In this document: positions 30,001 to 42,000 of the stretch, in pieces | Position numbering within the stretch: the first letter of the stretch is position 1 | Layout of the letters: the number at the start of each line of letters is the position of its first letter | NCBI RefSeq assembly: GCF_041886205.1 | Contig: NZ_CP169029.1 | Reading direction: 5' to 3' (one strand) | Length of the DNA: 64,000 bases | From: Escherichia coli | Lineage (GTDB): Bacteria; Pseudomonadota; Gammaproteobacteria; Enterobacterales; Enterobacteriaceae | Position numbers: made by a program

Positions 30001-33000
30001 GATAAAGTCGTCTCTCTGATCGTGCCTCGTGGCGATGGCGCAATCCTCACCGCAACGCAGAACGGTTATGGTAAACGTACCGCAGTGGCGGAATACCCAA
30101 CCAAGTCGCGTGCGACGAAAGGGGTTATCTCCATCAAGGTTACCGAACGTAACGGTTTAGTGGTTGGCGCGGTACAGGTAGATGACTGCGACCAGATCAT
30201 GATGATCACCGATGCCGGTACGCTGGTACGTACTCGCGTTTCAGAAATCAGCATCGTGGGCCGTAACACCCAGGGCGTGATCCTCATCCGTACTGCGGAA
30301 GATGAAAACGTAGTGGGTCTGCAACGTGTTGCTGAACCGGTTGACGAGGAAGATCTCGATACCATCGACGGCAGTGCCGCGGAAGGGGACGATGAAATCG
30401 CTCCGGAAGTGGACGTTGACGACGAGCCAGAAGAAGAATAATTTTACTTCTTCATGCCAAAAGGGAGCTATCTCCCTTGTTTGAATTGAAAAGTCCAGGC
30501 TGCAAAGTCTGGGCTTTTGTCGTATTAGGGCACGGTAAAGTTTGGCTGTGCCCGTAAAAAATGGCTGGCTATACACAAGGAATGTGGCAATGAGTGGTGA
30601 AAAAAAGGCGAAAGGCTGGCGGTTCTATGGTCTTGTAGGTTTTGGCGCAATAGTACTGCTTTCCGCTGGCGTCTGGGCGTTGCAATATGCTGGCAGTGGG
30701 CCAGAAAAAACGTTGTCGCCGCTGGTGGTGCACAACAATCTGCAAATCGATCTCAATGAGCCGGACCTCTTTCTCGACAGCGACTCTCTGAGCCAGCTTC
30801 CCAAAGATCTCCTCACCATTCCGTTTCTCCACGATGTTCTGAGTGAAGATTTCGTTTTCTATTATCAGAATCATGCCGATCGTCTGGGCATTGAAGGCAG
30901 CATTCGTCGCATTGTCTATGAACACGATCTCACGCTGAAAGATAAACTCTTTTCGTCACTCTTAGATCAGCCCGCGCAGGCTGCGCTATGGCACGATAAA
31001 CAAGGCCATCTTTCACATTACATGGTGCTGATCCAGCGCAGTGGTTTAAGCAAACTGCTGGAGCCATTGTTGTTTGCCGCTACCAGCGACAGCCAGTTAA
31101 GCAAAACGGAAATCAGTAGCATCAAGATAAATAGTGAAACTATTCCTGTTTATCAGTTGCGCTATAACGGCAATAACGCCCTGATGTTCGCGACATATCA
31201 GGACAAGATGCTGGTGTTTTCCAGCACGGATATGCTGTTTAAAGATGATCAGCAGGATACCGAAGCCACGGCGATCGCAAGTGATTTGTTGAGCGGCAAA
31301 AAACGCTGGCAAGCCAGCTTTGGCCTGGAAGAGCGTGCTGCCGAAAAAACGCCAGTACGCCAGCGCATCGTGGTCAGCGCCAGGTTGCTGGGTTTTGGCT
31401 ACCAGCGGTTAATGCCTTCTTTTGCTGGCGTACGCTTCGAAATGGGTAACGACGGCTGGCACAGTTTTGTGGCGTTAAATGATGAATCCGCCAGCGTAGA
31501 TGCCAGTTTCGATTTTACGCCGGTCTGGAACAGTATGCCTGCCGGGGCCAGCTTCTGTGTGGCGGTGCCGTATTCACACGGTATTGCCGAAGAGATGCTT
31601 TCGCACATCAGCCAGGAAAACGACAAGCTGAATGGGGCGTTAGACGGTGCCGCGGGGCTGTGCTGGTATGAAGACTCAAAATTGCAAACCCCGCTGTTTG
31701 TCGGCCAGTTTGATGGCACTGCCGAACAGGCGCAATTGCCAGGGAAACTGTTTACGCAAAATATTGGTGCGCACGAAAGCAAAGCGCCAGAAGGTGTTTT
31801 GCCGGTAAGCCAGACTCAGCAGGGCGAAGCGCAAATCTGGCGTCGCGAAGTGAGTTCCCGATACGGTCAGTATCCGAAAGCCCAGGCGGCGCAAACCGAT
31901 CAATTAATGTCGGATTATTTTTTCCGTGTGTCGCTGGCGATGCAAAACAAAACGCTGCTTTTCTCCCTCGATGACACGCTGGTTAATAACGCCCTGCAAA
32001 CACTGAATAAAAACCGCCCGGCAATGGTGGATGTAATACCCACTGATGGCATCGTTCCGCTCTATATCAATCCACAAGGCGTGGCGAAACTGCTGCGTAA
32101 CGAAACGTTGACCAGTCTGCCGAAGAATCTCGAACCGGTTTTTTATAACGCCGCACAAACTTTATTAATGCCGAAGCTGGACGCTTTATCTCAACAACCG
32201 CGTTATGTCATGAAGCTGGCCCAGATGGAACCCGGTGTCGCCTGGCAGTGGCTACCCATAACCTGGCAGCCGCTATGAGACACGGGCTGCTGGCGCTGAT
32301 TTGCTGGCTGTGTTGTGTTGTTGCCCATAGCGAAATGCTGAATGTCGAACAATCCGGGCTGTTTCGCGCCTGGTTTGTACGCATTGCACAAGAACAGCTC
32401 CGCCAGGGGCCAAGTCCACGCTGGTATCAGCAGGATTGTGCGGGCCTGGTGCGATTTGCGGCGAACGAGACGCTGAAAGTTCACGACAGTAAATGGCTAA
32501 AAAGTAACGGTTTCTCTAGCCAGTATTTGCCGCCAGAGATGACGCTAACACCTGAACAGCGTCAACTGGCGCAAAACTGGAATCAGGGGAACGGGAAAAA
32601 CGGCCCCTACGTGACCGCGATTAATTTGATTCAGTACAACAGCCAGTTTATTGGCCAGGACATAAACCAGGCGCTGCCTGGCGATATGATTTTTTTCGAT
32701 CAGGGCGATGCCCAGCACTTAATGGTCTGGATGGGGCGTTACGTCATCTACCACACCGGAAGCGCCACGAAAACTGACAACGGAATGCGCGCAGTCAGTC
32801 TGCAACAACTTATGACATGGAAGGACACCCGATGGATACCCAACGATTCCAATCCCAATTTCATTGGCATTTATCGTTTAAATTTTCTGGCGCGATAGCA
32901 GCGTGCTTGTCCCTGTCTCTTGTGGGAACAGGGCTTGCTAATGCTGATGATTCGCTTCCTTCCAGTAACTATGCGCCGCCCGCCGGGGGAACATTCTTTT

Positions 33001-39000: not shown

Positions 39001-42000
39001 ATCTGCACCTGGCCTTTGATGGTTATCCCACCGGGCTTGATGAGAACTATATCGAAACGCTGACCCGACAATTATTAATGGACTAATGCTATGCGAAAGA
39101 TTTTTCTTCCGTTGTTACTGGTGGCGCTTTCGCCTGTCGCTCACAGTGAAGGTGTGCAGGAAGTCGAGATTGATGCACCGCTCTCTGGCTGGCATCCGGC
39201 AGAGGGCGAAGATGCCAGTTTTTCACAATCGATCAATTACCCGGCGTCGTCCGTCAACATGGCAGATGATCAAAATATCTCAGCGCAGATCCGCGGCAAA
39301 ATAAAGAATTATGCTGCGGCGGGTAAAGTTCAGCAGGGCCGGCTGGTGGTCAACGGTGCCAGTATGCCGCAGAGAATTGAATCCGATGGTTCATTTGCAC
39401 GCCCTTATATTTTCACTGAAGGCAGCAACAGCGTGCAGGTCATCAGCCCGGATGGGCAAAGCCGACAAAAAATGCAGTTTTACTCAACGCCGGGTACAGG
39501 AACGATTCGTGCACGTTTACGGCTGGTTCTCTCGTGGGATACGGACAATACCGATCTCGATCTCCATGTTGTCACGCCCGATGGCGAACACGCCTGGTAC
39601 GGTAACACGGTGCTGAAAAACAGTGGTGCACTGGATATGGATGTCACGACGGGGTACGGCCCCGAGATTTTCGCCATGCCAGCGCCAGTTCACGGACGCT
39701 ATCAGGTGTATATCAACTACTATGGCGGACGCAGCGAAACGGAATTAACCACCGCCCAACTGACGCTGATCACCGATGAAGGATCGGTCAATGAGAAACA
39801 GGAAACATTTATTGTACCGATGCGTAATGCTGGCGAGCTGACGCTGGTGAAAAGTTTTGACTGGTGAGCCATCCCTTCACACAACCTGGCTCTTTCTTTT
39901 TTCAGATAAGACTGCTGGGCGATCTGCCGACGCCAGGATATAACCATTAACAAGCGTCGGCAGATTGGTCATTTCTTATTTTTCGTACTGAGAACTGTCC
40001 ATTTACTCCGGCTTTCCTGGTTAAGGCAATGGTTTCTAAGCGATACGCATTATTGCAATGGTGACAGAACATTGCGGTAACACGCTTTTACCGCTACCTT
40101 AACCACACTCCATCGGTCACCTGAGGCGGAGCTTCGCCCCTTTGAAATACCTTGCTTCTTTTCGTACAACCCTGAAAGCCTCGCGCTACATGTTCAGAGC
40201 ATTGGCGTTAGTGCTCTGGCTGTTGATTGCCTTTTCATCCGTTTTTTACATCGTTAATGCGTTACATCAGCGAGAATCGGAAATTCGTCAGGAATTTAAT
40301 CTGAGTTCCGATCAGGCTCAGCGCTTTATTCAACGCACCTCTGATGTGATGAAAGAGCTGAAGTACATCGCCGAAAATCGCTTATCGGCAGAAAACGGTG
40401 TGCTTTCCCCGCGTGGACGAGAAACGCAGGCGGATGTGCCTGCGTTTGAACCGCTGTTTGCCGACTCCGATTGTTCCGCAATGAGTAACACCTGGCGAGG
40501 TTCTCTGGAGTCATTGGCGTGGTTTATGCGCTACTGGCGCGATAATTTTTCTGCGGCTTACGATCTAAACCGGGTATTTTTAATCGGCAGCGATAACCTC
40601 TGCATGGCCAATTTCGGTCTGCGTGATATGCCAGTGGAACGCGATACCGCGTTGAAAGCGTTGCATGAACGCATCAATAAATATCGAAATGCACCACAAG
40701 ATGATAGCGGCAGTAACCTCTACTGGATCAGCGAAGGTCCGCGCCCTGGCGTCGGGTATTTTTACGCGTTGACGCCAGTTTATCTGGCGAACCGGTTGCA
40801 GGCGCTTTTGGGTGTCGAGCAGACCATCCGGATGGAGAACTTTTTCTTACCGGGTACGTTGCCGATGGGGGTTACCATTCTTGATGAAAATGGTCATACC
40901 CTGATTTCGCTTACCGGACCAGAAAGTAAAATTAAGGGCGATCCTCGCTGGATGCAGGAACGCTCCTGGTTTGGCTATACGGAAGGGTTCCGGGAGCTGG
41001 TGCTGAAGAAAAATCTGCCACCCTCATCGCTAAGCATCGTGTATTCGGTGCCGGTTGATAAGGTGCTGGAACGCATTCGCATGTTGATCCTTAACGCAAT
41101 TTTGCTGAATGTGCTTGCCGGAGCTGCATTGTTTACTCTCGCACGGATGTACGAGCGACGTATTTTCATTCCGGCGGAAAGCGACGCCCTGCGACTGGAA
41201 GAACATGAGCAGTTCAATCGCAAGATTGTCGCCTCCGCGCCAGTGGGTATCTGCATTTTGCGTACCGCTGATGGCGTCAATATTTTAAGTAACGAACTGG
41301 CGCATACCTATCTCAATATGCTTACGCATGAGGACCGCCAACGACTGACGCAAATTATCTGTGGGCAGCAGGTCAATTTTGTTGATGTCCTGACCAGCAA
41401 CAATACCAATCTGCAAATCAGCTTCGTCCATTCGCGCTATCGTAATGAAAACGTGGCCATTTGTGTGCTGGTGGATGTTTCTTCGCGCGTGAAGATGGAA
41501 GAGTCGTTGCAGGAGATGGCACAAGCAGCGGAACAGGCGAGCCAGTCAAAATCGATGTTCCTTGCCACCGTCAGTCATGAGCTGCGAACGCCGCTGTATG
41601 GCATTATCGGTAACCTGGATCTGTTGCAAACCAAAGAGTTACCGAAAGGCGTCGATCGTCTGGTGACGGCAATGAACAACTCTTCCAGCCTGTTGTTGAA
41701 AATTATCAGCGATATTCTCGATTTCTCGAAGATTGAATCGGAACAGTTGAAGATCGAACCGCGTGAGTTTTCACCGCGTGAAGTGATGAACCACATCACC
41801 GCCAACTATTTACCGCTGGTGGTACGCAAGCAGTTAGGCTTGTACTGCTTTATTGAACCGGATGTGCCAGTGGCCTTAAATGGCGACCCGATGCGTTTAC
41901 AGCAGGTCATCTCCAACCTGTTGAGTAACGCCATAAAATTCACCGATACCGGCTGTATAGTTTTGCATGTCCGCGCTGATGGCGATTATCTCTCTATCCG

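Follow-up and report, generated by a model that had tools for sequence, protein, structure and literature searches.

The 64,000-nt stretch analysed here (hereafter the window; contig NZ_CP169029.1 of Escherichia coli assembly GCF_041886205.1) carries the putative operon yfaA-yfaT-yfaS-yfaQ-yfaP, which encodes an alpha-2-macroglobulin (A2M)-like protein, YfaS, and four partner proteins. All five genes lie on the + strand: yfaA (30590-32278, 562 aa), yfaT (32275-32898, 207 aa), yfaS (32832-37436, 1534 aa), yfaQ (37437-39086, 549 aa, with a GTG start codon) and yfaP (39091-39867, 258 aa). The original prediction, made from the sequence alone, had described them as tightly coupled, and the four junctions agree with that description when read from the sequence. 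A common ATGA (32275-32278) joins yfaA to yfaT; yfaT and yfaS overlap, by 67 nt if yfaS is read from the ATG at 32832, which gives the 1534 aa quoted in that prediction; the yfaS stop codon TAA (37434-37436) is directly followed by the yfaQ GTG at 37437; and a 4-nt gap separates the yfaQ TAA from the yfaP ATG. The 9278-base stretch is 100% identical to the corresponding region of E. coli strain wlxctx60, where RefSeq lists the same five genes. Nearly all complete E. coli genomes (5397 of 5426, ~99%) carry the 9.3-kb block at ≥95% identity, and dN/dS values range from 0.02 to 0.27 across all five genes, versus both K-12 and E. albertii. Because of this prevalence and these dN/dS values, the arrangement of the five genes is not attributed to chance. 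The GC content of the operon (53%) and its GC content at third codon positions (GC3) are in line with the flanking DNA, and the locus appears to be a resident and selected part of the Escherichia genome.

To place the operon among its relatives, one genome per species was scanned with YfaT/MagC peptide patterns (335 relatives), and 80 loci were kept, 72 from Pseudomonas and eight from enteric bacteria (Escherichia, Superficieibacter, Enterobacillus, Yersinia alsatica and Edaphovirga). The gene order A-T-S-Q-P was invariant in 80/80 loci by tblastn synteny and corresponds to magB-C-D-E-F in 72/72 Pseudomonas loci. YfaT matches the crystal structure of P. aeruginosa MagC (PDB 7BK8) with an E-value of 1.7e-102 and 75% identity, and the median identities between E. 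coli and Pseudomonas are 45% for YfaA, 72% for YfaT, and 54% for each of YfaS, YfaQ and YfaP. The COGs listed for MagA-F (Table 2, PMC3735191) are also those of the Yfa proteins. Since order, the YfaT-7BK8 match, identities and COGs all agree, the operon is almost certainly an orthologue of the Mag system, with YfaA corresponding to MagB, YfaT to MagC, YfaS to MagD, YfaQ to MagE and YfaP to MagF. The Mag-type system is already known, its Pseudomonas orthologue having been studied since 2013. The resemblance to magABCDEF, pointed out in the original prediction, proved to be true orthology by gene order, the 7BK8 match and COGs, except that the operon has five genes and not six, magA being absent. 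The Yfa operon gave its COG and Pfam families their names.

An additional gene lies upstream in 72/72 Pseudomonas loci and encodes a YfaP paralogue (37-43% identity), which corresponds to MagA; neither the window nor any of the eight enteric loci has such a paralogue upstream of yfaA, and this defines a five-gene variant. YfaP is closer to the downstream Pseudomonas copy (49-58% identity) than to this upstream one, and MagA and MagF themselves have 105 of 269 residues in common (PMC3735191). Besides the same five families in the same order, the P. aeruginosa magABCDEF operon (PA4492-PA4487) resembles the Yfa operon in the lack of a thioester cysteine in the A2M, the bait core NRSER, the 67-nt magC/magD overlap and, judging by eye, the export signals (PMC3735191; PMC5764988). 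It differs by the presence of magA, absent in Escherichia and the other enteric carriers, by a thioester site that reads GVEQ instead of the more degenerate GVIN of YfaS, and by RetS/Gac/RsmA control, which is known in Pseudomonas only.

The start of yfaS merits attention. In RefSeq, annotated with the Prokaryotic Genome Annotation Pipeline (PGAP), the gene begins at a GTG at position 32922, giving a product of 1504 aa with no yfaT overlap and no signal peptide, and no sequence resembling a Shine-Dalgarno (SD) motif was seen before 32922. The ATG at 32832 is preceded at 7 nt by GGAAGGA (32819-32825), and the whole putative initiation region (32819-32834, + strand) lies inside yfaT, where the ATG is made by the Arg-Trp codons CGA-TGG (within DTRWIP). 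The orthologous loci all (80/80) encode this Arg by CGA, keep the ATG triplet and overlap by precisely 67 nt, although CGA represents just 4.4% of the Arg codons in Pseudomonas mag genes. Synonymous codon entropy in the 12 yfaT codons located 5' of the ATG is 0.205, versus 0.711 in the rest of the gene (Mann-Whitney p=0.0013), and other rare codons are fixed in this stretch in Pseudomonas (CAA in 72/72, ACA in 64/64 and ATA in 66/72). Because of the conserved CGA and 67-nt overlap, the suppressed synonymous variation and the SD motif, we place the yfaS start at the ATG at 32832; the overlap is genuine and of ancient origin, whereas the GTG chosen by RefSeq is an annotation error, of a kind that is probably widespread. 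The correction matters for annotation, and for the design and interpretation of magC deletions. The magC deletion of PMC5764988 leaves 18 nt of magC and would also remove the magD start and initiation region, a possible confound of the phenotype; in the same paper, the text and a figure legend disagree on what that phenotype is.

YfaT/MagC is the most conserved component of the system, with 68-77% identity to Pseudomonas as compared with 41-58% for the other four proteins. MagC was not detected by proteomics in P. aeruginosa (PMC3735191). The high identity of YfaT (72-77%) raised the question of a recent horizontal transfer from Pseudomonas, which we rejected in view of the GC (53%) and GC3 that match the flanks and of the 41-58% identity of the other proteins. 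It is better explained by constraint, part of which would come from the overlapping yfaS start.

For export signals, the N-termini were inspected by eye, and on this reading they agree with the earlier claim that all five products are exported or anchored. YfaA has a charged N-terminus followed by a single hydrophobic helix (residues 11-35 in the AlphaFold2 model), and apparent cleavable Sec-type signal peptides are seen in YfaT (ending in AHS), YfaS (ANA), YfaQ (TLA) and YfaP (AHS). That of YfaS spans residues 1-38, with cleavage in GLANA/DD. In Escherichia, this signal peptide contains Cys25 in a lipobox-like IAAC (residues 22-25; window 32898-32906). A lipoprotein was rejected since the cysteine is not conserved outside Escherichia. 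Export of YfaS by the Tat pathway was also rejected as unsupported: orthologues start with MDTRR, where the E. coli protein reads QR; some 15 residues separate this peptide from the hydrophobic region; and its sequence is that of the invariant YfaT C-terminus read in the +1 frame.

YfaS matches the Pfam families MG2 (4e-19), A2M_BRD (5e-17), A2M (1e-13) and bMG10 (4e-6), and is 51-55% identical over its full length to the proteins in the MagD position in Pseudomonas. A sequence and profile search of the PDB gave only noise from macroglobulin (MG) domains of C5/CD109. No CxEQ thioester motif is present in YfaS. In the aligned region, PYGCLEQT of the E. coli type I protein ECAM (YfhM) faces PWGGVINT of YfaS, and the degenerate site is G1069-V-I-N1072 (36036-36047, + strand), where ECAM has C-L-E-Q. 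Type I A2Ms (ECAM/YfhM-PbpC and Salmonella Sa-A2M) are likewise periplasmic, multi-MG proteins with a bait-region domain and a thioester-domain (TED)-like region, genetically paired with a peptidoglycan-related enzyme. YfaS, however, combines GVIN with a signal peptide of the Sec type and four other partners, while ECAM is a CLEQ-bearing lipoprotein whose gene is paired with pbpC. The identity between the two is 22% over 278 aa only, and the neighbours of yfaS are yfaT and yfaQ, not pbpC, the K-12 yfhM-pbpC pair being located elsewhere on the chromosome. With no CLEQ and no pbpC as neighbour, YfaS does not fit type I; it is a type II, thioester-less A2M.

Alignment of 79 Mag-type A2Ms showed GVIN or GVVN at this site in enteric bacteria and GVEQ in most Pseudomonas. 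An intact YPYGCVEQTAS is kept around residue 1075-1086 in 14 of the 79, all from Pseudomonas (loci L009, L014, L019, L022, L025, L028, L033, L035, L036, L044, L046, L057, L060 and L062). Because these mag-operon A2Ms retain CVEQ, the published rule that type II A2Ms lack the thioester is not absolute, and the alignment looks like a stepwise loss of the thioester among Mag-type A2Ms. The bait of YfaS is TNRSERR (residues 851-857; 35382-35402, + strand), equivalent to ANRSERG, which experiments identified as the bait of MagD (PMC5764988). With its flanks (residues 830-886), it is nearly invariant among 79 orthologues, from Escherichia to Pseudomonas. Baits of classical A2Ms are hypervariable. 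Within YfaS, conservation is lowest and evolution fastest in the TED-like region (residues 950-1100 and 1200-1400).

The Pfam assignments proposed for the partners were all recovered: DUF2138 in YfaA, DUF1175 in YfaT, two DUF2300 in YfaQ and DUF2135 in YfaP, in addition to the A2M domains of YfaS. YfaA, which also matches NCBIfam PRK11410, is predicted to be a membrane anchor and scaffold, with one N-terminal transmembrane helix and a periplasmic DUF2138 body; a sequence and profile search of the PDB gave no relative of it. YfaP (DUF2135, 5.6e-17), a MagA paralogue, is predicted to be an A2M-binding accessory subunit, and a profile search gave no PDB relative. YfaT has, besides DUF1175, a weak NLPC_P60 match (0.0017). 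All 39 orthologues compared keep the triad residues C55, H148 and H160, which line up with two motifs of 3I86 and 3PBI, DCSGL and QHV..Y.G. YfaT/MagC thus has Cys, His and His at the canonical motif positions of NlpC/P60 endopeptidases such as RipB (3PBI). A MagC paper of 2021 in FEBS Lett is said to describe the triad in an inactive conformation. Unlike these enzymes, MagC is described in PMC10318531, which cites that paper, as binding peptidoglycan and not hydrolysing it.

The family of YfaQ/MagE is small, with 293 clusters in a set of 1.84 billion representatives. In addition to the two DUF2300 matches, it has a Pfam SpoIID match (1.4e-5) and a sub-threshold NCBIfam SpoIID match; no sequence-level penicillin-binding protein (PBP) match was found. 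The model built from a 76-sequence alignment has a mean predicted local distance difference test (pLDDT) score of 94.9 and a predicted template modelling (pTM) score of 0.91, and Foldseek placed class A beta-lactamases and PBP3 at the top (E about 2e-6). The model comprises the signal peptide, a PBP/beta-lactamase-like domain (~24-250), a SpoIID-like domain (~312-450) and C-terminal helices with an HExxH motif. Residues at catalytic positions are strongly conserved: S60-x-x-K63, at the N-terminus of helix 59-73, in 75/76 sequences, and, each in 76/76, S108-C109 in a loop, K195-T196 on strand 192-200, E334 at the position of the SpoIID catalytic Glu and H520-E-x-x-H524 on helix 512-526. The idea that DUF2300 is a genuine repeat within YfaQ was rejected, since BLAST between the halves of the protein gives an E-value of 0.64 and each half has a different fold. 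With the SpoIID/LytB and SleC lytic transglycosylases (5I1T, 4RWR, 9H68), YfaQ has in common the signature EEYxxxVxxxE...EAxKAxAVAARTY with the invariant E334; it differs in that the domain is shorter and fused to a PBP-like domain and an HExxH C-terminus, and in that YfaQ is no sporulation protein. With PBPs, class D beta-lactamases and the BlaR1/MecR1 sensor it shares SxxK at a helix N-terminus and K-T on a strand, whereas sequence-level similarity is lacking and the second and third motifs read S-C-G instead of SxN and K-T-[F/W/Y] instead of KTG. On the basis of the model, we confidently predict that YfaQ/MagE is built from PBP/beta-lactamase-like and SpoIID-like folds. No paper linking MagE or YfaQ to either fold was found in the literature searched. 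Eight conserved cysteines in YfaQ would also argue for a periplasmic protein.

The yfaS gene is uninterrupted in the window, while that of K-12 MG1655 (b4500) is annotated as a pseudogene. The K-12 gene has the same length and differs by 100 substitutions, one of which turns Trp-1368 (TGG in the window, 36933-36935, + strand) into an in-frame stop codon. The contrast between an intact gene here and a disrupted one in K-12, drawn in the original prediction, is thus right on both sides, and the lesion in K-12 is no frameshift but a nonsense mutation at codon 1368. A 41-mer spanning the stop codon, taken exactly as in K-12, was found in 364 of 5426 complete genomes, while the window allele or near variants of it were present at this codon in at least 4861. 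As K-12, the usual model, carries the nonsense allele, the system is not known to have been studied in E. coli, even though the block is present in about 99% of complete genomes and is under purifying selection.

Upstream of yfaA lies gyrA (27814-30441, + strand), and two hairpins follow its stop codon (30461-30478 and ~30489-30518, + strand; centroid fold, z = -3.2), the second with an A-tract and a U-tract on its sides. They likely form the gyrA terminator and insulate yfaA from gyrA. At the other end, a hairpin followed by a U-rich tract (39904-39981, + strand; -34.6 kcal/mol, z = -6.4, with 0/200 shuffles as stable) likely marks the 3' end of the operon, ahead of rcsC (40142-42991, + strand). 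Within the operon, matches to promoters and terminators did not exceed the shuffle expectation and are uninformative on internal transcription units. RNA folding also placed a hairpin in the yfaA leader (CACA-AGGAA-UGUG, 30574-30586, + strand), with GGA in the loop, over the SD sequence. It resembles CsrA/RsmA sites, and RsmA is reported to control the magA leader of the Pseudomonas mag operon (PMC3735191). In a crude count over other leaders, 35/77 had ANGGA at the SD, which does not distinguish it from an ordinary SD, and the CsrA site was kept as a possible lead only.

How such an operon might work is best approached from Pseudomonas. MagD is periplasmic and associated with the inner membrane and is complexed with MagA, MagB and MagF (PMC3735191); MagA and MagF bind it 1:1, as established in the Pseudomonas Mag work, and MagB anchors and stabilises it (PMC5764988). 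Chymotrypsin, trypsin and papain cut MagD at the bait, and the tobacco etch virus (TEV) protease is trapped non-covalently after bait cleavage, while loss or deletion of MagE alters the forms of MagD and disturbs its processing (PMC5764988). The mag operon also protects against the peptidoglycan-targeting type VI secretion system (T6SS) effectors VgrG3 and Tae1 (PMC12663445). The suggestion that the five proteins form a periplasmic multi-protein machine for anti-protease or envelope defence matches this work (PMC3735191, PMC5764988, PMC12663445). That the roles of the partners are not established, as also stated in the original prediction, is partly out of date, roles being known for MagB, MagA/MagF, MagC and MagE. 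By analogy, complex formation, anchoring through the MagB counterpart, non-covalent trapping and protection against VgrG3 and Tae1, all known in Pseudomonas, would hold in E. coli too.

Our main explanation, likely overall, is that the locus is the five-gene Escherichia form of the type II bacterial A2M system and encodes an inner-membrane-anchored, peptidoglycan-coupled trap for foreign hydrolases; towards this specific mechanism in E. coli we lean only slightly. The five genes would be transcribed into one mRNA, from after the gyrA terminator to the hairpin 3' of yfaP, and translation of yfaS would begin 67 nt inside yfaT. All five products would then cross or insert into the inner membrane. 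YfaA, a one-helix inner-membrane anchor like MagB, would hold YfaS on the periplasmic face, and YfaP, like MagF, would bind YfaS as an accessory subunit. YfaS, with GVIN and no thioester, would act as a non-covalent trap: a hydrolase cutting the bait TNRSERR would then be caged. YfaT, by its NlpC/P60 fold, and YfaQ, by its PBP-like and SpoIID-like folds, may recognise peptidoglycan through its peptide stems and its glycan strands, and we infer that they bind or act on peptidoglycan within the complex. They could thereby position the trap on the cell wall, or couple it to the wall. The net role would be to shield the periplasm and the cell wall against foreign enzymes, both proteases and type VI effectors directed at peptidoglycan. 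The link between mag and resistance to such effectors has been reported without a mechanism; the folds of YfaQ/MagE, beside the NlpC/P60-like YfaT/MagC, give testable hypotheses of a coupling between an A2M and the cell wall.

Several points weigh against this proposal. No experiment on the E. coli Yfa proteins was found, and since YfaS is truncated in K-12, laboratory growth does not require the system. Stable binary complexes with MagD were not obtained for either MagC or MagE (PMC3735191, PMC5764988). MagE was moreover reported to be cytoplasmic in P. aeruginosa, which conflicts with a periplasmic role at peptidoglycan, although the signal peptide and eight conserved cysteines of YfaQ would counter this report in part. 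DUF1175/MagC is presented in PMC10318531 as an inactive peptidoglycan binder, with catalytic residues called inactive. The conserved bait hints at a specific or endogenous cleavage rather than at a broad trap. Finally, a scan of the gyrA-yfaA spacer for sigma-70 promoters gave no match upstream of yfaA, and a scan of positions 30000-40500 with Rfam at gathering thresholds returned no family; because of these two results, co-transcription of yfaA-yfaP is suggested by gene packing and synteny and remains inferential.

The strongest competing explanation, which we nevertheless consider unlikely, is a machine for peptidoglycan remodelling or repair, in which YfaT and YfaQ would be active wall enzymes and YfaS a scaffold, a regulator or a substrate processed by YfaQ (a cleavage from 165 to 100 kDa is seen for MagD). 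It would account for the invariance of residues at catalytic positions (39 sequences for YfaT, 76 for YfaQ), for the match of the YfaQ folds to lytic transglycosylases and PBPs/beta-lactamases, and for the bait, whose conservation is that expected of a cognate cleavage site. The changed MagD forms after magE deletion point in the same direction, as do the pairing of type I A2Ms with a peptidoglycan enzyme, PBP1c, and a mag phenotype that concerns peptidoglycan-targeting effectors. It fits poorly, however, with the trapping of a protease by MagD in vitro and with the inactivity reported for MagC, and also with the altered YfaQ motifs (K-T-[F/W/Y] and S-C-G) and the lack of a sequence-level PBP match. 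A bolder version of enzymatic function concerns YfaQ/MagE alone, which could be a catalytically competent three-module cell-wall enzyme, with SxxK, a SpoIID-type Glu and HExxH, that processes the YfaS bait or fastens the closed trap or its captive to peptidoglycan by transpeptidase-like chemistry. We regard this as a long shot. If true, YfaQ chemistry would replace the covalent step lost with the thioester, and the series CVEQ, GVEQ, GVIN would record the hand-over.

Improbable as well, and a little more so than remodelling, is a classical host-directed anti-protease that would guard a gut commensal or pathogen against host or microbiota proteases that reach the periplasm, a role proposed for bacterial A2Ms generally, the partners serving for folding and anchoring only. 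The A2M domain set with its bait region, the cleavage of MagD at the bait by chymotrypsin, trypsin and papain, and the near universality of the operon in E. coli would agree with such a role, as would the lower virulence of MagD mutants in chronic infection (cited in PMC5764988). Peptidoglycan-enzyme folds with conserved active-site residues in two partners would, however, be left unexplained, many carriers are soil or plant Pseudomonas, and the sole defined loss-of-function phenotype is interbacterial. That the operon is a decaying, functionless remnant in Escherichia is very improbable and was already disfavoured: the K-12 stop at codon 1368, the replacement of CxEQ by GVIN and the lack of a recognisable promoter in the gyrA-yfaA spacer scan are outweighed by dN/dS values that stay low in all five genes, including versus E. 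albertii, by the predominance of the window-like allele at codon 1368 and by the strict conservation of the overlap, the start codon and the bait.

In comparison with what was known of the Mag system, this analysis corrects the yfaS/magD start, with its invariant 67-nt overlap, and identifies what kind of lesion K-12 carries. It also describes an enteric variant of five genes without magA, annotates YfaQ/MagE at the level of folds, and shows that the bait is conserved and that some Mag-type A2Ms retain CVEQ. Gene anatomy, orthology, thioester loss, bait conservation, fold assignments and purifying selection were computed here.

The distribution of the operon in enteric bacteria is patchy, with carriers in Escherichia, Superficieibacter, Entomohabitans, Enterobacillus, Yersinia alsatica, some Serratia, Chania, Edaphovirga, Pectobacterium wasabiae and Salmonella enterica subsp. 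salamae. For Salmonella enterica the literature gives the type I form only, in contrast with the carrier found among subsp. salamae. None of the five proteins matched a PADLOC model, so that the operon is not a catalogued anti-phage system. Around the operon, atoSC-atoDAEB, located between yfaP and rcsC in K-12, is absent from the yfaP-rcsC spacer of the window (39868-40141); yfaP and rcsC are contiguous in 1536 of the 5426 complete E. coli genomes and split in the remainder. The GyrA protein encoded in the window has the wild-type Ser83 and Asp87, and thus carries no common quinolone-resistance substitution.

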